Shown here: one piece after another, positions 3,406 to 30,490 of the stretch | Position numbering within the stretch: position 1 is the first letter of the stretch | Layout: each line of letters opens with the position of its first letter | IMG/VR virus record: IMGVR_UViG_3300028840_004908 | Origin: a virus | DNA length: 64,000 nt | Direction: 5' to 3' (one strand) | Position numbers and translations under genes: made by a program | Notes under the pieces: generated by a model | The model's input: the letters and a program-made list of their open reading frames with translations, nothing else | The model's database searches: none | What the model was told of the DNA's origin: nothing

Positions 3406-3503
3406 AGAAAAGGTTTGCCTTGCAAAATGCAGGTGTCTCAACCACCCTTCAAAAGACTTAACCGCATGAATCGCCATTTGCCGTGAACTTTCTTCGCATT
3501 TTT
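3406..3503 (-). promoter_or_regulatory. class I conserved upstream element, copy A
   Basis: core CTTAACCGCATGAATCGCCATTTGCCGTGAACTTTCTT (plus-strand spelling) shared with five other copies. It lies 15-50 nt 5' of the 3393 start codon. It is flanked by a duplicated TTGGAGAAAAACCATGAAAAA. Confidence 0.5.
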
Positions 3504-3715
3504 CATGGTTTTTCTCCAATTAGCTCTTTTCGAGCCGTTGCCCGTAATGCGAGGTCTGGGACAGGTGTATCGATTTCGCTCATGAAACGCATTTCAGGGG
3601 ACGTTCGACCTTCGCCAGCACGAAAGCAGCTTCGATAGATTTCAATGGCTTGGTTGCGAAGTCCCGAGTCTCCCGCAGCGAAGCGAAGAATTGTGGTTTT
3701 TTCAGCAGATGTCAT
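3503..3715 (-). CDS. hypothetical protein (70 aa)
   Basis: ATG at 3713-3715 (MTSAEKTTIL...) with GGAGGAG SD. ATGA overlap with the upstream gene stop. Confidence 0.4.
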   Translation of the reverse strand: MTSAEKTTILRFAAGDSGLRNQAIEIYRSCFRAGEGRTSPEMRFMSEIDTPVPDLALRATARKELIGEKP

Positions 3716-4275
3716 TTTCTCTCCTCCGGGTGTCCGCAGAATATGCACCAGTCACCTGATTCGTTCTCTGGGTCGTATTCCTCCGGCAACGGCCAGAGGT
3801 CGTCATTGATAAGCCGTATGTGCTGTTTACCGTCTTTTGGGAACGAGTCGTAGTGGCACACCCCGTCCGGAGAGTAGCGGCAGCGCCATCCGAAAGAAAC
3901 GCCGCAGCCCTTGCACCACGCGCCAACAGACATCCATTTGTCTTTCCAGTCGCTGTCTTTTATTCGCTCGAAGTGATGGTGGCAGTTGGTTTTTAGTTTT
4001 GCGAGATGTTCGTATAATGCTTCGATTTTCGCACGAGTTTTCTTCGCCTTGGCTTGGCTGGTTTGGAACTTCACGCAGGGAAGGGTTGCGAGAGGTCCGC
4101 CGATGCGAAAGGTTTGCGAAGCTTGCGGGGTGGAGTAGACAGTGATGTGTTGAAAGCATTCGCCACAGAAGTTCGCCATGTTGCGGGCTTCAAGCCGTTC
4201 CCATTGGGCTATCTTGTGTCCGTTTTTCTCCGCGAGTTTTTCTGCTTTTTGCATGACCTTATTCAGTGAGTCCAT
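3712..4275 (-). CDS. Cys/His-rich putative zinc-binding protein (HNH-like nuclease fold not excluded)
   Basis: C-terminal half NCHHHFER...CKGCG...CHYDSFPKDGKQHIRLINDD...CIFCGH. Start MDSLNK at 4273-4275 has a better SD spacing than the upstream ATG. Confidence 0.45.
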   Translation of the reverse strand: MDSLNKVMQKAEKLAEKNGHKIAQWERLEARNMANFCGECFQHITVYSTPQASQTFRIGGPLATLPCVKFQTSQAKAKKTRAKIEALYEHLAKLKTNCHHHFERIKDSDWKDKWMSVGAWCKGCGVSFGWRCRYSPDGVCHYDSFPKDGKQHIRLINDDLWPLPEEYDPENESGDWCIFCGHPEERK

Positions 4276-4288
4276 TGTTTGCATCCTT

Positions 4289-4597
4289 TCATCGGACGGG
4301 ATATTTCGCGACATAAGCCGCGACCCGATCCATGTAGCGATGTATTCCCGGTCCGTCAATCCTTGTTGCGTGGAAATGCAATTCGTCAAGCATCTCGTGC
4401 AACGCTTTATAGACCGCTGTAAAGTTATACAATCCTTCGCGTAATACTTTGGGGATTTTTTTGTTTTCGAAGCAGATTTCCAGCGCCCACCCGTCTTTGT
4501 GCAGGGCCAGTGTACTGCGATTCATGCCGTCAGGAGGCGTTAATGGCCCGCCTTCAAGGACCATGTAGTTCGTGCATTCGAGCGCCACGCCGATCAT
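4289..4597 (-). CDS. hypothetical protein
   Basis: 102-aa minus ORF. Start codon abuts the stop of the upstream gene. Confidence 0.45.
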   Translation of the reverse strand: MIGVALECTNYMVLEGGPLTPPDGMNRSTLALHKDGWALEICFENKKIPKVLREGLYNFTAVYKALHEMLDELHFHATRIDGPGIHRYMDRVAAYVAKYPVR

Positions 4598-5380
4598 TTA
4601 CTTCTCTTTCTTCACGAGCCAAATAACGTTGAAGCGAAGAGTAGAGAAACGCGTGGGTCTGTTTGCGTTCAGATTGACAGTCGTCTTCGCTGTACTTTTA
4701 GGGTTGACCCCTGTGAACGTAGCTGACCCTTGCCAACCTCGTGTTGCTGGAGGTATCCAGCCTTTGATTTGCACAGTGCAAAATACGATACGTTTGCTTG
4801 TGCTGTTGCGAAGGGTGACGCTTAACGTCTTCTCGTCCTTCTTTTTAACCGTGGCCGAGAGTCCGCGAATCGGTTTGTATTTTCTCGTCTTCTGATTGAA
4901 TTCGGATTTCTCGCTTTCCCTTTTATACTCCAAGAAGTGTTTCCATCGCTTGTTCACTTTGTTGATCTTCCACCAATTGTCTTCGTTGTAATACTGTTGA
5001 TCTTCTCTTGACGTCTTTTCTGGTTTGTCGGGTTCCTTAACTTCTACTTCGGATTCTTTCTCTTTCGCCTTGTTCGTAACAGCCCTTTGAATCCACGAGG
5101 AGTCCAATCCCTTGCGCAGCGAAGTTACGACGTCCTTGTTCATTTGCAGGATTTCGAGGAGCTGTTCCTTGTTCTTCAGGGTTTCGTCTTTCTTAACAGC
5201 GTTCCGGATTGCAGCGAGTTTGGAGTAGACATCCATCACGCTCTTTTCTTCGGACGTAAAGAAGTGATGGACGGCCAGCTGTGCGTCAGCAAGGTATTGC
5301 TGACCCTCCTTGATAGTAGGCTTTTCTTCGGCGAATGCGAAGCTTGTGCAGCACAACAGTAGCATGATAATCATTCGTTT
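4598..5380 (-). CDS. secreted Lys-rich coiled-coil protein
   Basis: internal start MKRMIIMLLLCCTSFAFA gives a signal peptide. ATGA overlap with the upstream stop at 5380. KE-rich coiled-coil-like sequence follows. Confidence 0.55.
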   Translation of the reverse strand, partial: KRMIIMLLLCCTSFAFAEEKPTIKEGQQYLADAQLAVHHFFTSEEKSVMDVYSKLAAIRNAVKKDETLKNKEQLLEILQMNKDVVTSLRKGLDSSWIQRAVTNKAKEKESEVEVKEPDKPEKTSREDQQYYNEDNWWKINKVNKRWKHFLEYKRESEKSEFNQKTRKYKPIRGLSATVKKKDEKTLSVTLRNSTSKRIVFCTVQIKGWIPPATRGWQGSATFTGVNPKSTAKTTVNLNANRPTRFSTLRFNVIWLVKKEK

Positions 5381-5841
5381 CATTGTTTGTTCTCCCCAAA
5401 GGTTTGATGTACTCTTTCTGTCAACCATTCCTTATTCTTATAGTTAGAAACAATATCTAAGGCTTGTTCCTTACTTAGCTTTTCCAAGCTCTCCAAGGCT
5501 GCTGTTTCATTTTTCATCGAGGTCGCCAACAAAACATTGAGCACATCCTTCTTTCCAGAAGGATAGATTTCCTTGTACCAAAGGTAAGCAAGTGTGATGT
5601 AAATCCAAATCCGAATTTCTTTGTCGGGATGAACATCGCACTTAAAATCGTTTTCCCATTCTTCTGCGGCTTGTGGATACGCATCACTCAAACTGGCTTC
5701 AAACCATTGACACCACTGTTTTTGATTTTCATTGAGTGTGGTGTGGTACCACATGATTGTCAAACCGTCTTTAGTTGTGTGGTCATATATTGCGTTTTGA
5801 ATAATTTTCTGGTCTTCGCCTGACATTGTTTTCTCCTTCAA
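5380..5841 (-). CDS. hypothetical protein
   Basis: 153-aa minus ORF. Its stop TGA overlaps the next ATG. Confidence 0.5.
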   Translation of the reverse strand: MKEKTMSGEDQKIIQNAIYDHTTKDGLTIMWYHTTLNENQKQWCQWFEASLSDAYPQAAEEWENDFKCDVHPDKEIRIWIYITLAYLWYKEIYPSGKKDVLNVLLATSMKNETAALESLEKLSKEQALDIVSNYKNKEWLTERVHQTFGENKQ

Positions 5842-6008
5842 GGGTTCAGCGGGCAGTCACTGCCGCATTCACAGGGACAGTCACCTTCGTATTCTGTCAG
5901 GTATCCGTTTTTCTTGCGATGCGCGCAGCATTGGTCCATCAGCGCTTGTTCCATATCGTCCTGCTGGCGAAGATAAGTATCAAGGCTTGATTGGACAGGA
6001 TCGATCAT
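5838..6008 (-). CDS. small Cys-rich hypothetical protein
   Basis: MIDPVQSS...DQCCAHRKKNGYLTEYEGDCPCECGSDCP. Cys cluster. Start chosen at the internal ATG. Confidence 0.3.
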   Translation of the reverse strand: MIDPVQSSLDTYLRQQDDMEQALMDQCCAHRKKNGYLTEYEGDCPCECGSDCPLNP

Positions 6009-6207
6009 CGGTTTTTTCCTTCCAAGGGTAAAGTAAAGTATCAATCAGCTTGCTATCCAGAACATTCCGGATTTCTTCCTTGGTGATTCTCGCTGACCTT
6101 CCGTACTCCATAGCCCGTTGTACCAGCGAACGGCCCTCGTGGGTTTCGTGAGGCTCCTCGGCGGCGAGAAGCACACATTTGAGGGCGAATAGTAGGCGAT
6201 TTTTCAT
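5980..6207 (-). CDS. hypothetical protein with hydrophobic N-terminus
   Basis: MKNRLLFALKCVLLAAEEP... signal-like N-terminus. Overlaps the next gene by 28 nt. Confidence 0.3.
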   Translation of the reverse strand: MKNRLLFALKCVLLAAEEPHETHEGRSLVQRAMEYGRSARITKEEIRNVLDSKLIDTLLYPWKEKTDDRSCPIKP

Positions 6208-6222
6208 GGTTTTCCCTCACGG

Positions 6223-6513
6223 TTAAGTCGCGATAAAAAGCTGGTCGAATTTAGCTTTGACAATTGCCTCTGCTTTCTTTCTCTCCCCTCCTTTTACGAC
6301 TTCTGATATTCTGACTTTCTTTATGCAACCATCCTCATTTCCCACAACGTAAATCTTGCCGTTATCGGTTACCCATCCCAAGATATCTTGAACAGAGAAG
6401 TTTTTGCGTTTCTCTTCAATCTGTCGGAAGGTGGCTTTGGTCATTTTGTGATTGTCAACGCGAATCACTTTGATTTCGATAGTTGCCGTCTGGATTGTCA
6501 AATTCTTTTTCAT
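6223..6513 (-). CDS. hypothetical protein (96 aa)
   Basis: ATG at 6511-6513 (MKKNLTIQTATIEIKV...) with GGGGAG SD. The track ORF is longer because of an upstream in-frame alternative start. Confidence 0.45.
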   Translation of the reverse strand: MKKNLTIQTATIEIKVIRVDNHKMTKATFRQIEEKRKNFSVQDILGWVTDNGKIYVVGNEDGCIKKVRISEVVKGGERKKAEAIVKAKFDQLFIAT

Positions 6514-6541
6514 GGTTTCTCCCCACTGGGGAATTCCCCAG

Positions 6542-6820
6542 TTAGAAATACTCTTTGTAAGTCTCCCAATTGCTGGCTGCTTTGATCTTGTCAACAGGGA
6601 CACTGTACCAGATTGTCGGGCGCGGGTCAGGCGCTGAGAAGACGTTGAATTCCTCCTCACTGTACGCCACAGCAGCAGCCGTGAAGGGACCGTTGTCCAC
6701 CAGCACGACATACATCTCGCCTTCTGGCGCAGGCCAGACAGGGTTTTCGCCGACTCTTGTGCCGTGCTTGTTCAGGAAGGACTCTTTTTCTTCGGTTGGA
6801 GGGTTGATGTAGCATCCCAT
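6542..6820 (-). CDS. hypothetical protein
   Basis: 92-aa minus ORF. Confidence 0.45.
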   Translation of the reverse strand: MGCYINPPTEEKESFLNKHGTRVGENPVWPAPEGEMYVVLVDNGPFTAAAVAYSEEEFNVFSAPDPRPTIWYSVPVDKIKAASNWETYKEYF

Positions 6821-6831
6821 TGTTTCATCCT

Positions 6832-7017
6832 TTACAGATCATCAAGGGTTGTTCCGAGTTCTTCCAACAGCACGCCCAGCTTGTTGTCTGCAATCCGGTG
6901 ACTGTTCTTCAAATCTTCGTTTGTCGTATTAGGCTCGTAACGCTCCGACAAATCGAACTCGTAGAACAGCCAGTGGATACATTCTCTCGCGGCTTCACGG
7001 AATTGCTTTTCGTCCAT
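6832..7017 (-). CDS. hypothetical acidic protein
   Basis: 61-aa minus ORF. Confidence 0.35.
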   Translation of the reverse strand: MDEKQFREAARECIHWLFYEFDLSERYEPNTTNEDLKNSHRIADNKLGVLLEELGTTLDDL

Positions 7018-7020
7018 TGT

Positions 7021-7260
7021 TTATTTCCTCCCCGCTGCCCTAAGCTTTGACAACATTTTCTTCGTTGCCCCTTCTCTCATAAAAGAACAATCCGGAGAAA
7101 GTGAAACTTCAATGTAATATGTGTTACCAACGCCTTTCTTATAAAATACACCAAAGACGCCACGAGTTTGAATAAGTTGTAATCGTAATTGTGTTACTTC
7201 GTTTTCCGTACAATCCCACATCGTGAAATGAAATGTGGGATAATTGAATAAGAACTTCAT
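7021..7260 (-). CDS. hypothetical protein
   Basis: 79-aa minus ORF. AAGGAGAATGAAGA SD upstream of ATG 7260. Confidence 0.4.
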   Translation of the reverse strand: MKFLFNYPTFHFTMWDCTENEVTQLRLQLIQTRGVFGVFYKKGVGNTYYIEVSLSPDCSFMREGATKKMLSKLRAAGRK

Positions 7261-7564
7261 TCTTCATTCTCCTTATGTGGGCAAACGCTTTCACATTCCC
7301 CGACGCCGAGGATTCTTACAACCGCACATTCATCGGCGCATTCAGGGAACGGGACGTCTTTAAGCTCTTGAGTTGTCTTCACGCTTTCATTCCTTTAGAA
7401 AAGGAGGGCAACTCCCGCTCCCGGCTATTTAACTCCGGTCATGACTAACTCTGAGGCTTCCTCTTTCGAAGGTTTCATCCTATAATTAAGGGCATTGGGA
7501 ATCCAACCCAATCAGAGCAGACTGCGGGAGTTTGGAAGCTTACTGCGCTTCACGGTACGCCCTC

Positions 7565-7747
7565 CTATTGTGGTTCTGTCTTTGAGGTTTCACTTTCCTC
7601 TTTGCTGCAATTCGAACAGAAATCGACACCATCAAAACTGGTCCAGCCTGTAGCCTTTGCCATATCACGCAAGTGCTTTTCGTCGTCACCCTGTCCGAAC
7701 TCATAACAACACTTATCACAGGCTAAAGAATATGTCGCTTCGATCAT
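7565..7747 (-). CDS. small zinc-ribbon protein
   Basis: CDKCCYEF...CSNC pairs of Cys. Acidic C-terminus. Confidence 0.4.
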   Translation of the reverse strand: MIEATYSLACDKCCYEFGQGDDEKHLRDMAKATGWTSFDGVDFCSNCSKEESETSKTEPQ

Positions 7748-7756
7748 GCTTCCTCC

Positions 7757-8068
7757 TTACGGCCAACGGGTCATTTCAGTAAGCTGCTTGCCTTTCAGCA
7801 CGATGGGAACGTCACAGCGAAGGTACGCAATGTCCTCGTCAAGATTTCCGATGTGGATGGCTTCCAACTGCTTGGCAAACTTCTTGAGACCTTCGCGTGC
7901 GCTTTTTACGGTTTCGTTGAAGTCCTTGTCGTCTGAAGCCGGAAGAACTTCCGCCAGCTCCTCCAGATACTGCTGGCCATTATCGATGGCTACAATAGTC
8001 GCGTCGTACTGTCTGAGCAAGAACCGGAACCGTTCCAATGCCTTTCTCTGCTTTTTCGTCATAGCCAT
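7757..8068 (-). CDS. hypothetical protein
   Basis: 103-aa minus ORF. AAGGAG SD. Confidence 0.45.
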   Translation of the reverse strand: MAMTKKQRKALERFRFLLRQYDATIVAIDNGQQYLEELAEVLPASDDKDFNETVKSAREGLKKFAKQLEAIHIGNLDEDIAYLRCDVPIVLKGKQLTEMTRWP

Positions 8069-8081
8069 TTCGCCGCTCCTT

Positions 8082-8345
8082 TCAGTCTTCTGGAAGGTCA
8101 GCTTCTTTGAACTTGTCGCAACTTTCTCCCATCAACTCCACCTGCTCTGCTCCCTTTTTCGCGGCACACGAAATAAGCATGCGCTTATTCTGCCACTGCA
8201 TACAGGCGTCGGAATGTTCACACGCGAAGCAGTGGGCGTTTTCCTTCGAGAATTTGGTATCTGTGTCGCTCATCGGTTCGTCCTCTCGATTGAATAGAGC
8301 CTCACTCGCCGTTTCTTTTTCGTTCAAAGGCCAAGTCCTCTTCAA
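8082..8345 (-). CDS. Cys-rich hypothetical protein
   Basis: CFACEHSDACMQW...CAAKKG...CDKF. Confidence 0.4.
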   Translation of the reverse strand: MKRTWPLNEKETASEALFNREDEPMSDTDTKFSKENAHCFACEHSDACMQWQNKRMLISCAAKKGAEQVELMGESCDKFKEADLPED

Positions 8346-8973
8346 AACCGGAGAACACGGCTAAAAGCTTCTGAACGTGCTCCGCTGAATACTCTCGGGA
8401 CGGGTCGATTCGTATCGTGAATTTGCCCCTCCCTTTCGCGTGAATTCCGAACGTGTGTTTCCCAACGTTGTACGAGCAGCTGGTTGCGTTTTCACGCGGG
8501 TAGGTGGCGTTGGGAAAGTGTTTGTGAAGGTCTGCTACCTGTCCCTTTTCGTAGTTTTTTAGTTTGATCTGCTTGTCAATGAATTCGTGAATTTCATCCA
8601 TCATAGCGTCGCACCGCTCGTGCATGCTTTTCGCAGCCTTATCCAGATTCTTGATCTGGTCAAAATCCGAATTGATGCGGCGTTCTCGGATGCGGTCATC
8701 CCCGTTTCCCACGCGGCTGGGCGTAGCCACGATTTTGTTGGTAACTTGGCTTCTGCTCCAACCGTGGTAAAAACTCTTACGGCGAATGGTGATTTTAACT
8801 TCTTCGCCGTACGTCTCTTTGCGGACAATGTGCCAATGTTGCGGTTTCATCTTGCCCTCATCATTTTCCATGACGAGTTTGTAGACGTTTCCAGACAGGT
8901 TGTTGAGCATGACGTGAAATCGCACCCAGAAGTTCCTGCATTCGTCTTGCTTTTTTGGCAGTAATTCGCTCAT
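8302..8973 (-). CDS. hypothetical protein (weak HUH-like HWHIV motif)
   Basis: start MSELLPKKQ at 8971-8973 with GAGGGAAA SD. Contains HWHIVRK and a later Y-x3-K. Too weak to call a Rep/relaxase. Confidence 0.45.
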   Translation of the reverse strand: MSELLPKKQDECRNFWVRFHVMLNNLSGNVYKLVMENDEGKMKPQHWHIVRKETYGEEVKITIRRKSFYHGWSRSQVTNKIVATPSRVGNGDDRIRERRINSDFDQIKNLDKAAKSMHERCDAMMDEIHEFIDKQIKLKNYEKGQVADLHKHFPNATYPRENATSCSYNVGKHTFGIHAKGRGKFTIRIDPSREYSAEHVQKLLAVFSGFEEDLAFERKRNGE

Positions 8974-9338: not shown

Positions 9339-9494
9339 GATCGCATCCTTTCAATCCGTCAACGGCAGACAGGATTCCCGTACTGGCGAACAGTATGGGC
9401 GACACGCCAGCCGCAAGAGACTTAACGAGGGGACAAACCCCGGCCCATTTCGTGGACGAATCCTGTCGCCGTCGAGGATTTATTCATGTCCCTC

Positions 9495-9547
9495 AAGAAA
9501 AAAATGGGGTGGCTGAATCTCCCGCGCAAAGGAAGACCAGCCACCCC
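9495..9547 (-). terminator. rho-independent terminator downstream of gene 9567..10458
   Basis: minus-strand reading: GGGGTGGCTG (22-nt loop) CAGCCACCCC followed by ATTTTTTTCTTG. The 10-bp perfect stem is at 9506-9515 and 9538-9547. Confidence 0.65.
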
Positions 9548-9566
9548 TGCCGTAGAGGGAGGACGG

Positions 9567-10458
9567 TTACTTTTTACCTTTGGCCGCTTCCACCTCGCCA
9601 ATCCGGTTGGCGATGAGGTTGGCGGCGTCATTGATCTCTTCCAGCAGCTCCTCGAACTGCTCCCCGAAGCCGGTGATCTCTGAGTAAGCCTTGACGAGCG
9701 CTTCGGCTTCCGCCAAGTCCTTCTTGCGTCCCTCAAGCCCACGGACAGTCTTGCTGGGCTTGGCCACCGAGCGCAGGATGTCGGTCAGCTGCTGCTTCAC
9801 GGTGCGCTTGGCGCTGTCCCACACCCACTCCAGCGCATTCTCGGACTCGACCTTGCAGTCGTACCACACGCGTCCGATGCTCAGCGCTGTCGTGAACTTG
9901 TTGAGGCGTTCGATTACCTCAACCTGCGGTTCGGGAACAAAGTACAGCCCACCCGTGGGGATGAGCGCAATGCCCTTGCCCTCGCGCCGAATGATGCGGT
10001 AGATGTAGCTGCGGATGTCGCCAGACGTCAGGCCGACGCTGTACAGGTCGAACTCTTCCTTGAACTCTGCGGCCTTTGAACCTTCGGCCTCAACCTGTCC
10101 CGACTCCTTGTTGAGCCGAATGGTTGTGGTCTGCTCGTACCCGAGGATTTCATTGGCCTCATCACGCGACTCATCGACGATGCCGACAACCGTGCGAATG
10201 CCGTTGTCCAGCACCTTGCGTGCGAGGTGGTCGTTGAAGCGACCCGTCTTGGACTGCCTGCCGTCCTTGAGCGTTTTGCTCACGGCTTTGGCAGCGCGAA
10301 TGAGCGCCGACTTCGTGGACTTCTCCGGCACCAGCGCGTCGGGCAGGCCTGCGTTGCGCGCAGCTTCCTTGACCATATCCGACGGGATGACGGTTTCGGT
10401 CAATTCGGCCTTGACTTCGTAGCCGATCACTTTGACGTTGCTGAGATATGTTGCCATG
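9567..10458 (-). CDS. hypothetical protein, candidate highly expressed (structural?) gene
   Basis: start MATYLSNVKV at 10456-10458 with GGAGGGCAATGAAATC SD. A class I element lies immediately upstream and a strong terminator downstream. No family recognised. Confidence 0.55.
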
Positions 10459-10469
10459 ATTTCATTGCC

Positions 10470-10572
10470 CTCCGCGAAAAGGTTTGCCTTGCAAATGCAG
10501 GTGTCCAAACCACCCTTCAAAAGACTTAACCGCATGAATCGCCATTTGCCGTGAACTTTCTTCGCATTTTAC
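10470..10572 (-). promoter_or_regulatory. class I conserved upstream element, copy B
   Basis: about 100 nt nearly identical to copy A (GAAAAGGTTTGCCTTGCAAATGCAGGTGTC...CTTAACCGCATGAATCGCCATTTGCCGTGAACTTTCTTCGCATTTT). Confidence 0.5.
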
Positions 10573-10999
10573 GCAGTTTTTTTGTGGCCCGTTTCTTGTT
10601 CTCGTTCAACAACTTACGCGTCTTATCTCTTCGGCTTATCTTCTCTTTGGGCGGTTCGGTTAGTTCGAAGGTGATAACGGTGGAAACCTTCGACATGGAT
10701 TTGAAGACCTCGTCAGCGCCGTAGCCTTTCATCGATAGGTTGCGTAGCTGATCGAAAAAGTCATCGTCGGTGTCCGTGTCGATGTCGCCATAGACAAACA
10801 GCACATTGTTTTCTGAGAGCATGATTTCAGTTGGTTCGCGGAACACGTACTTCTTGCTCCTGAAGATTATTTCGATTTCATGCCGGAGCACATCGCGGTA
10901 AACGTCTTCCACGACACCGCGCACTTTGTCGCCACCCATGCGTTGGGGAAGTTTGAACTTGACCACCTTGCCAATCATTTCGTAAATCAGGTAGCGCAT
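10526..10999 (-). CDS. hypothetical protein with basic C-terminus
   Basis: ATG 10997-10999 (MRYLIYEMIGKVV...) with AAGGGGA SD. The reading frame continues through the class I element, so the C-terminal 25 aa are encoded by the element. The upstream CxxC segment may be non-coding. Confidence 0.4.
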   Translation of the reverse strand: MRYLIYEMIGKVVKFKLPQRMGGDKVRGVVEDVYRDVLRHEIEIIFRSKKYVFREPTEIMLSENNVLFVYGDIDTDTDDDFFDQLRNLSMKGYGADEVFKSMSKVSTVITFELTEPPKEKISRRDKTRKLLNENKKRATKKLRKMRRKFTANGDSCG

Positions 11000-12621: not shown

Positions 12622-12668
12622 CCAAAAGAAAAAAAAGAGGGGCTGGGCTGAGCGGGACCCAGCCCCTC
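12622..12668 (-). terminator. rho-independent terminator downstream of the AAA+ ATPase gene
   Basis: minus-strand reading: GAGGGGCTGGG (10-nt loop) CCCAGCCCCTC then TTTTTTTTCTTTTGGG. A second hairpin GCGCCTC/GAGGCGC lies just upstream. Confidence 0.65.
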
Positions 12669-13944: not shown

Positions 13945-13989
13945 TTTTACCCTCCGCTCAAGACATAGGACAAAAAGCGCTCATATCAA

Positions 13990-14066
13990 CCTTCAAAAGA
14001 CTTAACCGCATGCAACCCCATTTGCCGTGAACTTTCTTGACATTTTCTTAGGTTTTTTTGGCCACG
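13990..14066 (-). promoter_or_regulatory. class I conserved upstream element, copy C
   Basis: CTTCAAAAGACTTAACCGCATGCAACCCCATTTGCCGTGAACTTTCTTGACATTTTCTTAGGTTTTTTTGGCCAC. The 3' part overlaps the last codons of gene 14048..14740. Confidence 0.5.
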
Positions 14067-18924: not shown

Positions 18925-18954
18925 TTTTCATCCTTTCATATTACTGAACCTTTT

Positions 18955-19032
18955 CCACCCTTCAAAAGACTTAACCGCATGCAAGCCCACTTGCCGTGAA
19001 CTTTCTTGGTATTTTCCTAAGTTTTTTTGGGT
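18955..19032 (-). promoter_or_regulatory. class I conserved upstream element, copy D
   Basis: CCACCCTTCAAAAGACTTAACCGCATGCAAGCCCACTTGCCGTGAACTTTCTTGGTATTTTCCTAAGTTTTTTTGGG. Contains hairpin GCAAG-CCCA-CTTGC. It precedes the vWA gene start at 18924. Confidence 0.5.
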
Positions 19033-19268
19033 GTCTTTCGGTTGATTATTTTCGCCCGAGCGGTGGCTTCGACTGGTAAGCTTTGGGGGTCGCCCGAGAT
19101 TGGGCCGTAATTCACGTTTATCAGCGTCATTCGAAGCTCTTCGGTCGTTTTCTCGGCCTTTTGACAGTTGGCGAATAGGTCATCGGCTACCTCGTTCTCC
19201 TTATACGCCTGTACCGCTACGGTCCCGTCGGGATACTCCACGATAAACAGGGCCAGCTCGGTCTTCAT
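19017..19268 (-). CDS. hypothetical protein
   Basis: 83-aa minus ORF. Its stop lies inside class I copy D. Confidence 0.4.
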   Translation of the reverse strand: MKTELALFIVEYPDGTVAVQAYKENEVADDLFANCQKAEKTTEELRMTLINVNYGPISGDPQSLPVEATARAKIINRKTPKKT

Positions 19269-19663: not shown

Positions 19664-19690
19664 TGGTTTATTATACAACGAAGAGGCATG
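19664..19690 (-). promoter_or_regulatory. class II sigma70-like promoter element (TTGTATAAT)
   Basis: minus strand GTTGTATAATAAACCAATG. The -10 box ends about 7 nt before the ATG of the 3D-domain gene, so the transcript could be leaderless. Same motif as five copies inside the mini-gene array. Confidence 0.4.
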
Positions 19691-20921: not shown

Positions 20922-21503
20922 CTACACTTCATTGAACTTCTCCTTGAATGCTTCAAGCGCAAGTTTTCTCTTTTCTTGCATTGGTTTGTATTTGTTCCGA
21001 TCTCTTTCACAACGCTTAAAAAGAGATTTGCCCTGATGATCAAAATCAAAAGACATTCGCAGTATATCCTGCTCTTCTTTTCTCAGTTCACACAACGTGT
21101 CGTGAACTTTCGCGCCTGTCTTTTCTCGTTGGGCAATGACATCATGGTGTAAGTCCAATCGTCGCTGATGCTCGTCAATAACAACTTTATCAGACTGGCT
21201 TCGTTCCATGATGTAAAGTGCCGTGTTTCTCATTACGGTGTATTGCATTCCCTTCTTGTAGTGTTTGTATTCTTTACCGTCCATACTTTTGGCGGCAATA
21301 ATAAGCTCAATCACAGCATCTTCTTTGGAAATGAGTTCTGTTGTCTCAAAGTTGACCCGTGACAAAATCACTTTCGCTTTGCGCTCAAGCTGCTTCCATG
21401 AATACGGTATGTCGTGAGCATCAACAAAGCATCCGCACTTTGTGCAGAAATATTTCGCTGAGAATCGATGCTTGCATTGGGGACAAGTTTTAGCTCCCAT
21501 CAT
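20922..21503 (-). CDS. hypothetical protein with N-terminal zinc ribbon
   Basis: CPQCKHRF...CTKCGC. ATGA overlap with the Pol X gene. Confidence 0.5.
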   Translation of the reverse strand: MMGAKTCPQCKHRFSAKYFCTKCGCFVDAHDIPYSWKQLERKAKVILSRVNFETTELISKEDAVIELIIAAKSMDGKEYKHYKKGMQYTVMRNTALYIMERSQSDKVVIDEHQRRLDLHHDVIAQREKTGAKVHDTLCELRKEEQDILRMSFDFDHQGKSLFKRCERDRNKYKPMQEKRKLALEAFKEKFNEV

Positions 21504-24723: not shown

Positions 24724-24732
24724 TTCAGCCCT

Positions 24733-24808
24733 CCTTTCGAAAGACTTAACCGCATGCAAGCCCACTTGCCGTGAACTTTCTTGGTATTTTTCTAAGTTTT
24801 TTTGGCCA
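24733..24808 (-). promoter_or_regulatory. class I conserved upstream element, copy E
   Basis: CCTTTCGAAAGACTTAACCGCATGCAAGCCCACTTGCCGTGAACTTTCTTGGTATTTTTCTAAGTTTTTTTGGCCAC. Followed by AGGAGGG and an ATG at 24721-24723 opening a 40-aa signal-peptide-like ORF. Confidence 0.5.
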
Positions 24809-24834
24809 CTCGAAAAACGAGCCTTCGGTTGGTT

Positions 24835-25260
24835 TTAACCATCTCGGCGGGTTATGGTATAGCCTTGCGCCCGAATCTCACTATCGGACATCAATTTTCC
24901 ATCCTTAAACCACCACGAGCCTTCAAGGGCTTCGCGAACAGGGTCGTCGGACTTCGTGGTACCGCACTTACAGCGGTAATGCCGAATGGCGATGGGACGC
25001 GACTCATCGTGAAGAATGCTGCCTCTCTCAAGACGCGTTATCCCACATACGACAAAGTTGTGACTGCGACAATTCTTTGGTGTGAGCCTTTCCTTGCACC
25101 GCTCGCAAATGCCGTCATCGTTGAACTTGTGCCCAAACTTCCGACAAACGACCTCTGGCGACCATTCAGCAGGATGGTCGCACCGTTCGCAAACTACCAT
25201 GTTGCCGCGTTGAGGTACCATTTTGTGACCAAACAAACTGCACATCAATGGAATTTTCAT
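24835..25260 (-). CDS. zinc-finger protein with duplicated C-x2-FGHK unit
   Basis: CSLFGHKM...CERCDH and CRKFGHKF...CERCKERL. 141 aa. Confidence 0.45.
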   Translation of the reverse strand: MKIPLMCSLFGHKMVPQRGNMVVCERCDHPAEWSPEVVCRKFGHKFNDDGICERCKERLTPKNCRSHNFVVCGITRLERGSILHDESRPIAIRHYRCKCGTTKSDDPVREALEGSWWFKDGKLMSDSEIRAQGYTITRRDG

Positions 25261-26045
25261 GATTTCTTGTCCTTTTTCAAAGCCTTCTTGAGTCCCAACA
25301 GGTCAGGCGCACCGCGACAGATGATTTTGCGCTTATGATTCCTCACTGAATTCCAATGCCAGTAATGCACCAACCCTTCTTTCAACCGACCCTCCCAATA
25401 ATCAGCCTTGCGTTTATCACGCCAATATCGGACAAGCTTGTCGTGATCTTTCTGCGGCAATTGAACGCTGAATTCCACCGCGTGAGTGTGGTCATCATGC
25501 GCGTTGTAGTACGGAATCTCAATGCGCTTGACGTTGGACACGGTTTTATTCTTGCGTAGTATCTTTTCCACCATATCCAAATCGAAATCAGTGTTGCTAA
25601 TGCCGCCAATATAGCCAAAATGGTAAGGCATCGACATTGGCATATCTTTTTCAAACGGATAAAACGTGTGTGAACTGTTTTCAAAGCGCAAAAGCTTGGT
25701 TTTGTCAAAGCCTTTTGAAGCGACAAAACCCAAAGCGTTGTATCTCACCGCTTTTTCCATGACTTTGAACATATCTTCCGTGCCCGAAGCCAACGCTTTG
25801 AGCAATGCGTTCCAAACGCCACCGTAATAATGATAAATCGGCTTGATGTTTCGAATAACGTTGACCATATTCCACTTGGGATGCGTTTTCCAGAACGCTT
25901 TGAAGTCCTTGACGCTGATGAAGTGAGAAGGAACGTCCTTTTTCCCACTGTTGGCTGGCCGATAGCGTACGGCCATCACGCCCTTGTGCGTTTCAGTTTC
26001 AATTCTGTCGATGATCACTCGCCTTCTTGTGTAAGTCTCAACCAT
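25257..26045 (-). CDS. hypothetical protein
   Basis: 262-aa minus ORF. No family recognised. Confidence 0.5.
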   Translation of the reverse strand: MVETYTRRRVIIDRIETETHKGVMAVRYRPANSGKKDVPSHFISVKDFKAFWKTHPKWNMVNVIRNIKPIYHYYGGVWNALLKALASGTEDMFKVMEKAVRYNALGFVASKGFDKTKLLRFENSSHTFYPFEKDMPMSMPYHFGYIGGISNTDFDLDMVEKILRKNKTVSNVKRIEIPYYNAHDDHTHAVEFSVQLPQKDHDKLVRYWRDKRKADYWEGRLKEGLVHYWHWNSVRNHKRKIICRGAPDLLGLKKALKKDKKS

Positions 26046-26115
26046 GCTTTCATCCTCCTTTGATAAAAATGCCGTGGCAGATGTATTTCAACCCACCACG
26101 GCACCGTTCCAACTG

Positions 26116-26586
26116 CTACTGCTCGTCGGAAATATCCACAGGCGGCAGAGGAGCTTTTTCTCCAGCCGGTTTTTCCGGAGCTGACGCTGGCGCAGCGGGT
26201 TCCTTCTTGGGCTTGTTTTTGCTGCCCTTCGGACGGCCACCCTTCTTCTTGGGCTTGGGTCCGCGCTTTTTAACAGCCTTCTTGCCGGGTTTGGGTCCGG
26301 GCTTTGCCTTTTTCGGGCGTCCGGGCTTTGCCTTTTTCTTCGTGACCGTTTTCTTTTTGGCCTTGGGCTTTTTGCCGCTGCCCTTGGGCCTGCCCGGTTT
26401 ACCCTTCTTTTTCGTGGCCACTTTCTTCTTGGTTGCCTTCTTCTTAGCAACCGCTTTGGGCTTGCGCCCCGGTTTTCCCTTCTTGGCCTTCAGCTTGGCG
26501 ACAACCTTTTCCAGCTTTGCCACCTTGCGCGTCAGCACAAGCATTGACTTGGCAACCAGTTTTGCCATTACGACAATTTCTTTCAT
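26116..26586 (-). CDS. histone H1-like / AT-hook-like Lys-Ala-Pro-rich DNA-binding protein
   Basis: repeated KPGRPKGSGKKPKAKKK, KPGRPKKAKPGPKPGKK, GGRPKGSKNKPKK motifs. Confidence 0.55.
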   Translation of the reverse strand: MKEIVVMAKLVAKSMLVLTRKVAKLEKVVAKLKAKKGKPGRKPKAVAKKKATKKKVATKKKGKPGRPKGSGKKPKAKKKTVTKKKAKPGRPKKAKPGPKPGKKAVKKRGPKPKKKGGRPKGSKNKPKKEPAAPASAPEKPAGEKAPLPPVDISDEQ

Positions 26587-26843
26587 TCTTCCTTCTCCTT
26601 GTCCAAAGTGAACGGTATATATTTTCCCTGCTCTAACAAGTAAGCAAGGTCAACCATGCTCAGGAATTCGACCTTATTTGGGACAACTTCTTTTGCGTAG
26701 GCAGTGCCGGAAACGTTTCCATCACTACCGACACTGACACCATAGTAATTGTCAGCATACTCACGTTCAAATTCGAGCTTCCCTCCCATAGCTCGGACTT
26801 TGACTGCTTGGACCATCTGTTCTTTGATTTGCTCATTGGTCAT
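26583..26843 (-). CDS. hypothetical protein
   Basis: 86-aa minus ORF. Confidence 0.4.
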   Translation of the reverse strand: MTNEQIKEQMVQAVKVRAMGGKLEFEREYADNYYGVSVGSDGNVSGTAYAKEVVPNKVEFLSMVDLAYLLEQGKYIPFTLDKEKEE

Positions 26844-27175
26844 TTTCCTTTCATCCTTTCATTATCCTCTTTTCTCTGTCCGATCTCTTCCCACATCTTG
26901 ATAAGTTGTTTTTGTTTTTCTTCAGTTTCCGCTTCCTTTCTTTTTGTGCCTTCGCTGATTTCATCCAATGATAGCCTACACGCTCTCAAAAACGGATGCC
27001 CTGACCAAACCAGAATAGCAACGTTAGCCCAATGATGCCATGCGAATTTGATATGAGCTTTTATTCCAAAATAGAACATGTAGATACGCGTCTTCATTAG
27101 CGACATCTTCCAAATGGTCACTTTGAACCAAAAGAAAAACCAAAGCAAACGTATCCATGTCCATAAATTACGCAT
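26840..27175 (-). CDS. membrane-associated hypothetical protein
   Basis: N-terminus LWTWIRLLWFFFWFKVTIW is hydrophobic. The C-terminus is KE-rich. Confidence 0.4.
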   Translation of the reverse strand: MRNLWTWIRLLWFFFWFKVTIWKMSLMKTRIYMFYFGIKAHIKFAWHHWANVAILVWSGHPFLRACRLSLDEISEGTKRKEAETEEKQKQLIKMWEEIGQRKEDNERMKGK

Positions 27176-27275
27176 AGCTGTCGAATCCCTTCTTGCGCTT
27201 GGCCAACTCGTCTCCAGCCGCCCAACGCAACCTGACGCGCTTCATGAACACTTTGAATTTCGCCCAGATGGTCAT

Positions 27276-27470
27276 TTATTCTTCCTTTGAAGTCACAATG
27301 ACCTGATTAGTGCATTGCGGCTCAATTACTAAGTAGCCGTTTTCCGAATGCACAATGACCTCGCCATTGCGCTCAAAAACCGTGATGTCGCCAATCCGTA
27401 TCTTGGTGCCTTCCTCCAAAGGAGTTTCAACATACTCAGCCCCGATGCGCTTGAATGCTTTCATTGTCAT
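27276..27470 (-). CDS. hypothetical protein
   Basis: 64-aa minus ORF. Confidence 0.35.
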   Translation of the reverse strand: MTMKAFKRIGAEYVETPLEEGTKIRIGDITVFERNGEVIVHSENGYLVIEPQCTNQVIVTSKEE

Positions 27471-27482
27471 AGTAGACTCTCC

Positions 27483-27980
27483 TTAAAGGAACTCGACCTT
27501 GATGGCCACTGCTTTCTCGCCCTCGTATTCGATGAAAACCGGATAGCTGCCATCGCCAACTCCGCTGGATGAAACAACGCCTCCCGGCAAAACGCCGAAC
27601 TGGTCCTTCAATGTCTTTCTGCAAACCAAATCGTACCAGTCCCCTCTGCCGAACTCACCGCTGTCCTCGTCCTCATCGCCCAAGTTGTAGTGGTCAAAGT
27701 CAAAAATCGACATCTGACCGCTGTCGACACCCGCATCGATGTTGGACGGATTGTCACTGAATTCAACGTTCTGGTGGTCTTCGTGTTTGGCGATCAGCTT
27801 GCCAACCCGAATGCCCCAGTCGTCTTCGTCTGACATCACGACAGAGCCAATCCAATTGCCGTTTTTGGCATGGACTTGACCCTGACACCATGTGCCCAAA
27901 CTGTAGCACGGGTCAGAAACAACAACCTCGCCAGAACCAATTTCAAACGTTCCAACCTTGCGTACGCTGTGTTCTTTCAT
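27483..27980 (-). CDS. hypothetical protein
   Basis: 165-aa minus ORF. Confidence 0.45.
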   Translation of the reverse strand: MKEHSVRKVGTFEIGSGEVVVSDPCYSLGTWCQGQVHAKNGNWIGSVVMSDEDDWGIRVGKLIAKHEDHQNVEFSDNPSNIDAGVDSGQMSIFDFDHYNLGDEDEDSGEFGRGDWYDLVCRKTLKDQFGVLPGGVVSSSGVGDGSYPVFIEYEGEKAVAIKVEFL

Positions 27981-27983
27981 CGC

Positions 27984-28286
27984 TCATCCTTTCATTGCGA
28001 ATTCCAAATGTCCCCTGAGCCACGCGGAAATTTCCTGCATGCTCGAAGGAACAAGCCTGTCGTAATATTTGATACTCTTTTCACAAGCCCTCTTTTTGGG
28101 CGTTGTGTCAGTTCGGACTCGAAAAACGATACGCCGGTCATGATTCCAACTGCCGTAAAGAGCAGTGTAGAATCGAAATTGACCATCTTTGAACGTGTAA
28201 ACCATTCTTTCATTCTCCTTCACTATCCATCTTCCAGTATCTTGACTGCATTCTGCTGCCAAGGGCTGTCTTCCGTTTTCCAACAA
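27984..28286 (-). CDS. hypothetical protein
   Basis: 100-aa minus ORF. Confidence 0.35.
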   Translation of the reverse strand: MLENGRQPLAAECSQDTGRWIVKENERMVYTFKDGQFRFYTALYGSWNHDRRIVFRVRTDTTPKKRACEKSIKYYDRLVPSSMQEISAWLRGHLEFAMKG

Positions 28287-28504
28287 TACCTAACACTGTA
28301 ATTTTGTCCCGGACTCAGATTCGCTAAACACCTTCCACAATGCTTGTTCAAATACTCGCAGGAATCTTCATGTATATCAATATCCCCGTACTCACATTTG
28401 CACTTTGGAACGCGCATTGGCTCGCCGCAAGCACAACAAAATGCGCGAAGCCAACGACTGCCTTGAATTGGAGAACCAATCAATCCACGCTCAATGTCGT
28501 TCAT
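28223..28504 (-). CDS. Cys-rich hypothetical protein
   Basis: CCACGEPMRVPKCKCEYGD...CEYLNKHCGRC. Confidence 0.35.
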   Translation of the reverse strand: MNDIERGLIGSPIQGSRWLRAFCCACGEPMRVPKCKCEYGDIDIHEDSCEYLNKHCGRCLANLSPGQNYSVRYCWKTEDSPWQQNAVKILEDG

Positions 28505-28508
28505 TCTT

Positions 28509-28847
28509 TCATCCTCTCATATGATTGAGAGCATCAGCGATAGCAAAAAGTCCTTTGGCAATAGAATCAAGTTTATTAGCGATTCCCGATTCCGAATGAG
28601 TCCGTGGAACAATCTCGTCTTTCAAATGAAGCCCAAAATCAGCAAGTGTTTGATTTATGTATTTGATTGTTCCCGCGCCAATTCCGAATTGTATTTCAAA
28701 ATGTTGAACAGGATGCTTAACGATGTCCCGGACTGTTTTACATTTAAGAAATTTACAAGCTTTTCTAAAACCACACGTTGCTTTGTACTGTTTAGGAACG
28801 AGCTTAAAAAACTCTTCAATAGGGGCGTCAAGATGAATACTTTTCAT
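28509..28847 (-). CDS. hypothetical protein (possible helix-hairpin-helix)
   Basis: FGIGAGTIKYINQTLADFGL is a GxG HhH-like segment. Confidence 0.4.
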   Translation of the reverse strand: MKSIHLDAPIEEFFKLVPKQYKATCGFRKACKFLKCKTVRDIVKHPVQHFEIQFGIGAGTIKYINQTLADFGLHLKDEIVPRTHSESGIANKLDSIAKGLFAIADALNHMRG

Positions 28848-28859
28848 TCTTTCATCCTT

Positions 28860-29234
28860 TCACTTGATGTGCTCGAACTCCCTACGCCAACTGTTACCAA
28901 TTCCAGCGTTGAAGAACTTCCCTGACTCAAGAGCAATGCAGTAATCACCGCTGCGCTCTTTGGTAATCGCCTTGACAACTTCCACGCTGCCGTCATGTTC
29001 CAGTTTCCTCTTACCGCCATTGACAAAATATATCTTCACTTTGTCACCAACCTTGAGATACGTCATCCCACCACCGTGCTTGTAAACCTTCGCACGGATG
29101 CTTTTGGGCTTGACAGTGTCAATATGGTCGACTGTCTTGCCTTGGCCATCGACGAAATTAATGCCCCCGATGCCCATAGCGCCAAACGATTTGGCGATGG
29201 CTTCACGCATTTTTTGATTTTCTGATTTGCTCAT
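28860..29234 (-). CDS. hypothetical protein
   Basis: MSKSENQKMREAIA... Internal start overlapping the upstream stop. Confidence 0.4.
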   Translation of the reverse strand: MSKSENQKMREAIAKSFGAMGIGGINFVDGQGKTVDHIDTVKPKSIRAKVYKHGGGMTYLKVGDKVKIYFVNGGKRKLEHDGSVEVVKAITKERSGDYCIALESGKFFNAGIGNSWRREFEHIK

Positions 29235-29518
29235 TACTTTTGATTCCCTTCTTGGCCTACTCTTGAATAAAACTGCTTGCCGCATTCATCCTTCATGACT
29301 TCCTCCACCGTCCGTTCGCGAGTCAAATCGTTAGCCTTTTTCATAAGCTCACTCTCGTAGACTGAAGCCATGTCAACGTAAGCCTCCATTATGTCCAACA
29401 AAGGTCTCACCAGCTTTGCAGCCTCAAGTAGCGCTTCAATATGCTTGCGCTGCTCATTTGGCATCTTCTGAAGCTCGTGCTCGATGACCTCAACCGCTTT
29501 GTCCAGTTTGCTCTTCAT
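29234..29518 (-). CDS. hypothetical protein
   Basis: 94-aa minus ORF. Confidence 0.4.
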   Translation of the reverse strand: MKSKLDKAVEVIEHELQKMPNEQRKHIEALLEAAKLVRPLLDIMEAYVDMASVYESELMKKANDLTRERTVEEVMKDECGKQFYSRVGQEGNQK

Positions 29519-29684
29519 TATCGTCTTCCTTTACATAGCCAAGCTCTTTGAGTCGTTCCAAAAGCCTTTCAAAACGCCTATAAAGATGTTTTGAAGGTGG
29601 TTTGTGCGCCCGTGCATCCGTGACTATCTTTTCCCTCAAACAATCCAATTCATCCGCAATCATTCTGAGATTTTCGTCCATCAC
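29490..29684 (-). CDS. hypothetical protein
   Basis: 64-aa minus ORF. Confidence 0.35.
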   Translation of the reverse strand: MMDENLRMIADELDCLREKIVTDARAHKPPSKHLYRRFERLLERLKELGYVKEDDNEEQTGQSG

Positions 29685-30025
29685 TCTGCTCCCATGTTCG
29701 TCAAACTCAAAACCGCCTTGCCGTCTTCATTGAAACTCTTGTTCGCAGAAGCCACGGCCCAATTCTGATTCCAAATGGCCCAGCAGCAATTACAACCTTT
29801 GTCTACTTTCCGTTCGCGCAGATACAGCTGCTGGTCGCTCACCAAATGGCCGTCCTTGTACATGCGCTTCTTGATGAAATCCCAACCCTCTGCGTTCAGA
29901 ACCTTTTTGATATGATACAGAAGTCTGGATTCACCAGAACCCCATTCACTGTCGCGGAATTGCGGGTCGCCCTTTTCCCGCTCAATAAGGCATTTCCCTA
30001 CTTTGAAATCTAACGATACTTTCAT
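29681..30025 (-). CDS. hypothetical protein
   Basis: 114-aa minus ORF. Preceded by a 46-aa ORF (30026..30163, CSCCND motif) with ATGA overlap. Confidence 0.45.
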   Translation of the reverse strand: MKVSLDFKVGKCLIEREKGDPQFRDSEWGSGESRLLYHIKKVLNAEGWDFIKKRMYKDGHLVSDQQLYLRERKVDKGCNCCWAIWNQNWAVASANKSFNEDGKAVLSLTNMGAE

Positions 30026-30163
30026 TTTCCTGTTCCTTTCACCTTACGGCGTGTCCACCGGCGCAGCTTTTTCTTCTGTCCATGGAAGTCATTGCAGCAG
30101 CTACAACGCACACCGCCAACAGCGACTTTCTTGAAAGAAGTTTTCTTGTAAATATCTTTCATG

Positions 30164-30382
30164 TTATGCGTCTCCAGCTAAACCCAACAGTTGGAAACCA
30201 TCCTTCAAACGCTCTTCATAAGACAGCGTAGTTTTGGCGCTGAAATGAAACTCGTCATTTGCCTTATCGTAATCGTTATTGTCCCGGTCCTCTTCGTTTC
30301 TGTGAAGCGTCTTGCCAGTGAGCCGTTCAAGACGCTCGGCTGTCGTCCATCTTCTGACTGTTCTGTCATCGTTGATATCCAT
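30164..30382 (-). CDS. hypothetical protein with YEERLKDGFQLL C-terminal motif
   Basis: shares the C-terminal motif with 12266 and 22408. GAGGGAG SD. Class I element copy F upstream. Confidence 0.4.
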   Translation of the reverse strand: MDINDDRTVRRWTTAERLERLTGKTLHRNEEDRDNNDYDKANDEFHFSAKTTLSYEERLKDGFQLLGLAGDA

Positions 30383-30435
30383 CGCTTCGCTCCCTCAAAA
30401 AAAGTCTTACCGGGAGCCTTAACCGCATTTCCAAC

Positions 30436-30490
30436 CATTTGCCGTGAACTTTCTCAGATTTTTCCTCATTTATTGTCTACCACCGGGTGC
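30436..30490 (-). promoter_or_regulatory. class I conserved upstream element, copy F (more divergent)
   Basis: CTTAACCGCATTTCCAACCATTTGCCGTGAACTTTCTCAGATTTTTCC. It lies 55 nt 5' of ATG 30382. Confidence 0.45.

Follow-up and report, generated by a model that had tools for sequence, protein, structure and literature searches.

The window analyzed here, a 64,000-nt stretch of viral DNA (IMG/VR record IMGVR_UViG_3300028840_004908), carries six copies, designated A to F, of an element of about 75 nt that a first-pass annotation had named class I. All six are on the minus strand, which is the coding strand, as GC skew, AT skew and the map of open reading frames (ORFs) place essentially all genes of the window there. 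Every copy lies between an upstream stop codon and a downstream Shine-Dalgarno (SD) sequence and start codon; GTTAAG ends 23-67 nt before the start codon (63 in A, 67 in B, 56 in C, 45 in D, 23 in E and 35 in F), and the start codons are at 3393 (A, an ATG), 10457 (B), 13944 (C), 18924 (D), 24721 (E) and 30382 (F). The copies are listed below with E-values from an nhmmer search of the window with a hidden Markov model (HMM) made from copies A to F.

3440-3520, minus strand: copy A, core AAGAAAGTTCACGGCAA-ATGGCGATTCA-TGCGGTTAAGTC at 3455-3494, E 8.6e-23
about 3407-3498, minus strand: A/B-type cassette of copy A, upstream of the 68-aa ORF 3393-3187
10508-10588, minus strand: copy B, core 10523-10562, with a leader shared with A to about 10470, E 5.8e-24, upstream of the DUF6744 gene 10457-9567
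13984-14064, minus strand: copy C, core 13999-14038, E 1.3e-22, upstream of the CobS-like AAA_5 ATPase gene 13944-12715
18953-19033, minus strand: copy D, core 18968-19007, E 2.3e-24, upstream of the CobT-like vWA gene 18924-16849
24728-24808, minus strand: copy E, core 24743-24782, E 2e-23, with the SD AAAGGAGGG directly after it and then the 32-aa ORF 24721-24623
30401-30481, minus strand: copy F, core 30416-30455, E 3.6e-18, upstream of an ORF starting at 30382

The 38-nt core proposed in the first-pass annotation recurs with 0 mismatches at five sites, against 0.00 expected from 100 shuffles (A 3457-3494, B 10525-10562, C 14001-14038, D 18970-19007 and E 24745-24782), while the core of copy F, the most diverged, differs from it at a few positions. 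With E-values from 3.6e-18 (F) to 2.3e-24 (D) and the next best match in the window at 0.37, six of the "six or seven" copies originally counted are upheld; the degenerate seventh (E 11) is not, and the range of 30436-30490 previously assigned to copy F takes in its upstream half only. The degenerate site, at 9414-9457 on the minus strand, reads GTCCACGAAATGG...GGGG-TTTGT-CCCC...GTTAAGTCTCTTG, with its blocks 5 nt further apart than in the six copies. The HMM matched only a 13-nt piece of it, GTTAAGTCT, without significance, and a broader HMM from 14 sites (described below) neither recovered it nor found additional sites in the window. Because it sits between a terminator and gene 9338, it may nevertheless be a relic, a possible decayed relative of the element.

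The longer flanks noted previously are also borne out. Copies A and B share a downstream flank, with some 45 nt of extra leader, and are ~97% identical in the core region; with a 1-nt indel between them, their similarity continues for roughly 110 nt. An upstream flank, CCAAAAAAAC(T/C)TA(G/A), is common to C, D and E, and D and E are nearly identical. At copy B an upstream ORF (10999-10526) enters the element and stops at the TAA of GGTTAAG, so that B is not strictly non-coding. Copy F marks the boundary between a small-gene array of 41% GC and a module of ~50% GC, and directly upstream of it, at 30478-30520, stands a tandem repeat of 21-22 nt (TGGCACCGGCAGGCGGTGGTA / TGGCACCGGCACCCGGTGGTA, minus strand). 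Short-read contigs from Logan start or end inside class I copies (L005 at 1-40 and 8410-8454, L011 at 2-28), and breaks of this kind at the repeats may contribute to the fragmentation of this genome in many assemblies.

Anatomy of the element

The element is bipartite, with AAGAAAGTTCACGGCAA followed by a variable stretch and then TGCGGTTAAG, an A-rich tract upstream and TTGAAGG downstream. Its coding-strand consensus reads CAAAAAAAC-TTAG-AAAAT-nCn-AAGAAAGTTCACGGCAA-[nTGGnnnTnCA]-TGCGGTTAAGTC-TTTTGAAGGGTGG, after which come a variable leader, the SD and the start codon. Within the 40-nt core, columns 18 and 22-27 vary and the others are invariant in five to six of the six copies.

Reading frames differ among the copies and the substitutions have no synonymous bias; the element is a nucleic-acid signal and not a peptide, as first proposed. 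A leader peptide beginning at the conserved ATG of block 2 (MRLSLLKGG...) was considered and rejected, as it has no SD, a length varying from 9 to >60 aa and non-synonymous changes, and its ATG is absent in a group of related sites, the L009 type, described below. Searches of the whole window found no match in Rfam at gathering thresholds and no tRNA, and there is no RNA fold common to the six copies (z-scores of -0.6, +1.2, +1.4, -1.9, -2.5 and +1.2 for A to F). The hairpin GCAAG-N4-CTTGC pointed out in the first-pass annotation does exist in D and E and, less well, in C, but the pairing is broken in A, B and F, and neither a functional role nor compensatory changes find support: 60% of cells are paired and 123 of 500 shuffles do equally well. 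The bases that could pair are exactly the variable bases of the core. The absence of an Rfam match, the inconsistent folds, the lack of covariation and the variability of the hairpin bases together argue that the signal acts as DNA, not as RNA.

Promoter classes, a phage sigma gene and related lineages

A scan for sigma-70 consensus sites (TTGACA/TATAAT-like hexamers 16-18 nt apart, or an extended -10 TGnTATAAT) found none in any of the six elements. Elsewhere in the window the extended -10 motif TTGTATAATTAAC has six coding-strand matches against 1.19 expected (0/100 shuffles), five of them in the small-gene array; two of the six have AAAAATCAAG 10 nt upstream.

19666-19678, 35903-35915, 40708-40720, 46876-46888, 56694-56706 and 61299-61311, all minus strand: TTGTATAATTAAC sites

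This set probably represents the host-sigma (early) promoter class of the phage. Since canonical sigma-70 promoters occur elsewhere and none lies in the elements, class I is distinct from host-type promoters.

Three other known classes were compared and set aside. A sigma-54 promoter (GG/GC doublets 10 nt apart, TGGCAC-N5-TTGC) finds its GGCA in the element, but TTGC is confined to C, D and E, where its distance is 1 nt too great, and A, B and F lack the GC. The sigma-28 (FliA) consensus is TAAAGTTT-N11-GCCGATAA, which the two blocks resemble (GAAAGTTC; GCGGTTAA, 6/8), but they stand 17-18 nt apart and not 11, and we take the likeness as a lead only. A promoter for a T7-like single-subunit RNA polymerase, which would be one contiguous conserved block of about 20-23 nt reaching from about -17 to +6, does not fit conservation split by variable bases and an inter-block stretch of 14-16 nt, and no polymerase gene was seen in the ~90 kb inspected. 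What we find has the features of a phage-specific promoter: a motif unlike the host consensus, present in six window copies and one on a further contig (L013), on the coding strand, intergenic and before an SD and start codon, together with a sigma-family gene (encoding P0005) in apparently the same genome.

Two of the transcription units headed by the element end in strong intrinsic terminators:

9498-9547, minus strand: intrinsic terminator, 10-bp GC stem and U-run, directly after the DUF6744 gene of copy B (-39.4 kcal/mol, z -4.28, 0/200 shuffles)
12629-12668, minus strand: intrinsic terminator, 12-bp stem and eight T, directly after the CobS-like gene of copy C (-41.2 kcal/mol, z -3.40), the top terminator match

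The B and C units, each with element, leader, gene and terminator, are thus self-contained and therefore need a promoter exactly at the element. The unit downstream of copy E includes genes for an ATP-dependent DNA ligase and Pol X.

Exact matches to the proteins of the window are found in metagenome assemblies of ENA, JGI and Logan, on contigs that reach 338,319 nt. The source is therefore an uncultured huge phage of ~338 kb, fragments of which are apparently also listed in IMG/VR, although a megaplasmid would be a less likely source. About 90 kb of this genome was inspected (the window, L010 and L013). Neither an 11-kb portion of the window nor the element had a match in deposited phage genomes, and a strict two-block pattern had no exact match in metagenome and reference-genome collections. 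Among IMG/VR viral contigs the strict pattern matched only two, L001 and L002, where a copy reading AAAGTTCACGGCAA-ACGCTGCCGG-TGCGGTTAAGG stands upstream of a Toprim primase gene; the same copy is on L013. The search beyond the window called for earlier thus yielded a further copy. Its inter-block stretch is different and 1 nt shorter than in the window copies, and the flanks of the primase locus have no detectable homology to the window. For the window proteins P0007 and P0013 and for the sigma protein P0005 the longest contig is in each case exactly 338,319 nt, and samples are shared; because of this identity the L013 copy is very probably another copy in the genome of the window. The source samples include JGI 3300017960, 3300017991, 3300017992 and 3300018080 and ENA ERZ27256790, ERZ27256791 and ERZ27256796. 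A small terminator-like hairpin with a T-run (L013 8733-8747) lies directly before this copy.

P0005 belongs to the sigma-70 family (Pfam Sigma70_r2, E 1.7e-9; best family match TIGR02937, sigma70-ECF, where ECF is extracytoplasmic function, E 1.5e-8). Its AlphaFold2 (AF2) model has two helical domains (predicted local distance difference test, pLDDT, 62.7), and all 50 matches listed by Foldseek in the PDB are sigma factors or sigma-containing RNA-polymerase complexes, with weak E-values. Deposited phage genomes hold one weak match to P0005 only, and L016, the locus of a sigma homologue, P0006, is too short and AT-rich to inform. The sigma gene (L013 10001-10681) has TTGACT-16-TATAAT (11/12) directly upstream, at 9889-9916, which is the best sigma-70-type site in the 15.5-kb L013 locus, while the primase gene immediately upstream of the sigma gene is headed by the class I copy. 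In the window itself, a 193-aa protein (20922-21503, minus strand) has a zinc ribbon of the TFIIB type at its N terminus (Pfam E 3e-4), and its residues 62-152 faintly match the sigma70-ECF superfamily (E 0.046). This protein may be another sigma-like factor of high divergence; BLASTP against P0005 gave no match, and a single-sequence AF2 model (pLDDT 45.8) was not used.

The same architecture, A.AAAGT...GG.AA, N14-16, C.GTWWA, recurs in three related uncultured phage lineages. The closest CobS homologues are 36-40% identical, and viral contigs hold no close relatives of the CobS-like protein. On L047, a syntenic contig of 77.7 kb with a DUF6744 protein of 53% identity, there are three sites, one example being AAGAAAGTCGCCGACAA-N16-GTTAAATAATTGAAGG; two of the three precede the CobT and CobS orthologues, which are the positions of copies D and C. 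The DUF6744 orthologue of L047 has a TATAAT-type promoter in place of the class I copy. Sites in L009, L017 and L023 read (A)AAGTCGTCGGGAA-N15-GTATAGGG, and in L009 GCAnAAAGTCGTCGGGAA-N15-GTATAGGG stands in two intergenic spaces, one of which precedes CobS. Scanning for the L009-type motif gave nothing in viral contigs and 29 loci in metagenome contigs, nearly all of them chance or coding matches, with only L023 looking genuine. An alignment of 14 sites keeps A.AAA...GG.A and C.GT..A and leaves the intervening stretches free, at 14-16 nt, and TTGACA-N17-TATAAT-type sites occupy other gaps of the related loci. Across such diverged proteins block identity and spacing are kept and inter-block bases are not, as a promoter recognized by a sigma factor predicts. 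In a further locus, L008 (CobS 36% identical), a different intergenic motif, GGTACTTTT-N16-GATATGATG(R)TGA, occurs twice, at about 3930-3965 and at about 7215-7250, with the CobS orthologue downstream in one case and a different gene in the other, a pattern suggestive of promoter/sigma pairs that differ between lineages.

Other features of the window touch the element less closely. Its left part has ~50% GC, and its right half (about 30.6-64 kb) is the 41%-GC array. At 30600-64000, on the minus strand, this is a very large tandem array of diverged paralogues encoding Cys-rich proteins of ~50-95 aa with the pattern MLSK.IC.KC...W.C...P..CP(Y/F).LEHLM..Q; at least 24 crude ORF calls match it, no Pfam family is common to them, and DNA repeat families reach 40-56 copies. 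Within the array, on the minus strand, lie genes for an Apyc1 (anti-Pycsar) homologue (52561-53439, E 3.6e-32), two NUDIX proteins (42890-43324 and 55957-56526), a dual-specificity phosphatase (57647-58333) and an HNH endonuclease with helix-turn-helix (HTH) domains (49908-50762), which would be in the style of counter-defense or host takeover. Two minus-strand stretches, 992-1490 (499 nt, pyrimidine-rich on the coding strand and with a TATAAT-containing end) and 7261-7564 (304 nt), are without a called gene in our ORF set or in independent JGI calls on L010, and could be non-coding RNAs or regulatory regions.

What reads the element

We consider it fairly probable that the element serves as a middle-class promoter cassette, for which RNA polymerase would use an alternative sigma factor, probably an ECF-like one encoded by the phage. 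The A-rich tract at the 5' end (CAAAAAAAC..AAAAT) would be UP-like, AAGAAAGTTCACGGCAA would form the -35-side block before a stretch with freely variable central bases, (T)GCGGTTAAG the -10-side block, and TTGAAGG(G/A) a start-site or SD-like box ahead of the variable leader, SD and start codon. The reader would be the bacterial polymerase, with P0005 the likeliest candidate for the sigma. From its host-type promoter, P0005 would be made early by way of host sigma-70, and would then switch on the class I units, with primase, ligase/Pol X, the CobT-like, CobS-like and DUF6744 proteins and the small ORFs, so that class I would be a middle, DNA-metabolism class. We infer the transcription start at the element, the identity of the sigma that reads it and the timing from this arrangement. 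Among the mechanisms listed in the first-pass annotation, a virus-specific promoter with a leader is best supported because of the two-block anatomy, the architecture in relatives, the complete units, the lack of sigma-70 hexamers and the presence of a phage sigma gene; an RNA processing site is not supported, and an operator survives as a rival.

Several points weigh against this promoter reading. No known sigma consensus agrees with the two blocks in sequence and spacing alike, and the 15 nt from GG(C/G)AA to GT are fewer than in typical ECF promoters, where the spacing is roughly 16-18 nt. At 17 nt, block 1 is longer than a -35 element needs, and an activator or repressor site may be embedded in it. 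The link between P0005 and the promoter is a guess; with about 90 kb of the ~338 kb visible, the genome may encode other sigma factors or its own RNA polymerase, and the assignment of L013 comes from an identical length of the longest contig and from shared samples. The near-identity over 60-110 nt is also partly due to recent duplication (A/B, D/E) and overstates functional constraint.

That the element is an operator or activator site for a phage DNA-binding regulator, with transcription by host sigma-70 at a weak -10 (TTAAGT or TAAGTC), appears unlikely to us. The long block 1, with conservation beyond what a sigma factor would contact, would suit such a site, as would asymmetric copies in a single orientation before many units, like stoperators or MotA boxes; the lack of a sigma-70 -35 is typical of activator-dependent promoters. 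T4 MotA-type middle promoters are activator-dependent, and mycobacteriophage stoperators are repressor sites. However, the -10-side block (C.GTWWA) is conserved across lineages equally with the upstream block and is not TAnnnT-like, canonical strong sigma-70 promoters exist elsewhere in the genome, and the blocks do not repeat each other or form a palindrome. The analysis turned up no candidate gene for such a regulator, the sole HTH protein found in the window being the HNH homing endonuclease.

The surroundings of copy A bear on how the element spreads. A perfect 21-nt direct repeat, TTGGAGAAAAACCATGAAAAA (minus strand), flanks this copy, its two occurrences being 100% identical with a spacing of 113:

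3386-3406, minus strand: downstream copy of the 21-nt repeat, holding the SD and ATG of gene 3393
3499-3519, minus strand: upstream copy of the 21-nt repeat, whose ATGA gives the TGA stop of the upstream gene 3715-3503 (independent gene calls)

In the simplest reading, a B-like cassette of about 92 nt would have been inserted into a former ATGA stop/start overlap, with duplication of the junction, which before insertion would have read ...GCTAATTGGAGAAAAACCATGAAAAAATTC... Because copy A sits in this duplicated junction and A and B are ~97% identical, we infer that the cassette spread within the genome by duplication and insertion. Flanking direct repeats are absent at the other five copies, and no terminal inverted repeats are common to the copies; an element of the type of miniature inverted-repeat transposable elements (MITEs) was rejected on these grounds. 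A bolder and doubtful reading, prompted by the duplicated ATGA junction and by the DUF6744 gene with class I here and a TATAAT-type promoter in L047, would be that huge phages of this group insert into gene junctions a regulatory cassette that propagates itself, made up of an UP-like tract, a promoter read by an ECF-like sigma of the phage and an SD, and so rewire genes from host-sigma to phage-sigma control. The long block 1 would then reflect an extended mode of recognition by the sigma or a co-factor, not yet described.

We give little credence to an element acting at the RNA level, whether as a shared 5' untranslated leader, an RNase processing site or a nut/put-like antitermination signal on read-through transcripts. 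Its copies are specific to the transcribed strand and closely precede SD sequences, an inter-block hairpin of 4-5 bp can form in D and E and less well in C, and A and B share their extra leader, but the folds differ among copies (z from -2.5 to +1.4), shuffles match the hairpin, Rfam offers no counterpart, and the hairpin bases are the non-conserved ones, with only the two flanking blocks kept across lineages. Similarly improbable is a selfish or neutral intergenic repeat, MITE-like or a tract of recombination or gene conversion, in which the likeness to a promoter would be incidental. The perfect duplication around copy A, the near-identity of A with B and D with E, and the short-read assemblies L005 and L011 that break inside copies all speak for it, whereas shared terminal inverted repeats are lacking, target duplication is seen at one of the six copies, all six have the same orientation and the same placement with respect to genes, and the same architecture upstream of orthologues in phages whose proteins are ~40-53% identical indicates long-term selection rather than a selfish spread of recent date.

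Least probable is that the promoter belongs to an RNA polymerase of the phage itself, whether a single-subunit enzyme of the T7/N4 kind or a multisubunit one of the phiKZ kind. Long, near-identical promoters are typical of such enzymes (about 23 nt in T7), the GTATAGGG that ends L009-type sites recalls the TATAGGG found where T7 transcripts start, and a polymerase gene could lie outside the inspected part of the genome. Yet freely varying bases interrupt the conserved region near the expected specificity contacts of a T7-like polymerase, the window, L010 and L013 showed no RNA polymerase gene while a sigma gene is present, and the hairpin that N4-type promoters need is not conserved.

Huge metagenomic phages have almost no experimentally grounded regulatory annotation, and a defined promoter class offers a handle on their temporal program. 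Class I has a candidate cognate sigma, its transcription units are clear, and relatives hold conserved counterparts; it offers a candidate orthogonal sigma/promoter pair for in vitro testing, and annotation of operons and expression classes throughout this phage group can draw on the motif. In addition, copy A with its duplicated junction provides a small, clean example of promoter addition to phage genomes.

Comparison with known systems

The closest parallel in layout is with the promoter-early stem-loop (PeSL) cassettes of T4-type phages, which are conserved intergenic sequences of ~100 bp with an AT-rich part, promoter boxes and an SD and ATG at the 3' end (PMC2839356), and which have been linked to recombination and insertion (Arbiol et al. 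2010 PMC2839356; Comeau et al. 2014 PMC4122927). Like these, class I is a repeated intergenic cassette of ~100 bp between a stop and the next ATG, AT-rich upstream, with two boxes and an SD and start codon at its 3' end. PeSL stem-loops often lie between or over the boxes, and the degenerate site here even has a GGGG...CCCC stem; the association with insertion may have a counterpart in the one event at copy A. In contrast to the strong sigma-70-type early -35/-10 boxes of PeSL cassettes, the boxes here are not sigma-70-like. Where PeSL stem-loops are terminators, the 4-5-bp stem here occurs only in C, D and E, is not conserved and belongs to no consistent fold, and where PeSL cassettes go with ORFan clusters, those described here head DNA-metabolism units.

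Mycobacteriophage stoperators are single-block repressor sites of 13-17 bp, and start-associated sequences are linked to translation. Class I resembles both in consisting of many asymmetric repeats of the same orientation in short spaces just upstream of genes, and differs from both in its length of 40-75 nt and in its two blocks with a variable stretch between them.

Phage sigma factors that define middle and late promoter classes include gp28 and gp33/34 of Bacillus phage SPO1 and gp55 of T4. As in those systems, a phage sigma-70-family protein here accompanies a set of genes with a non-host promoter, while other genes, including the sigma gene, have host-type promoters, an arrangement that follows the logic of a temporal cascade. 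The motif A.AAAGT...GG.AA-N15-C.GTWWA, however, matches none of their consensus sequences, and the sigma is ECF-like.

ECF (group 4) promoters are likewise bipartite; GGCAA/GGGAA resembles their GGAAC-type -35 and CGGTT/CCGTATA their CGT/GTT-type -10, and the class I copy heading the primase gene immediately upstream of the sigma gene loosely recalls ECF autoregulation. Unlike in ECF promoters, GG.AA and GT have a spacing of 15 nt, there is no AAC triplet and a further conserved AAGAAAGT lies upstream, and unlike in ECF systems a sigma-70-type promoter precedes the sigma gene itself and the inspected ~90 kb showed no anti-sigma gene. Taken together, the sequence of the motif is new and the type of signal is well known; current concepts of phage transcription are unchanged.

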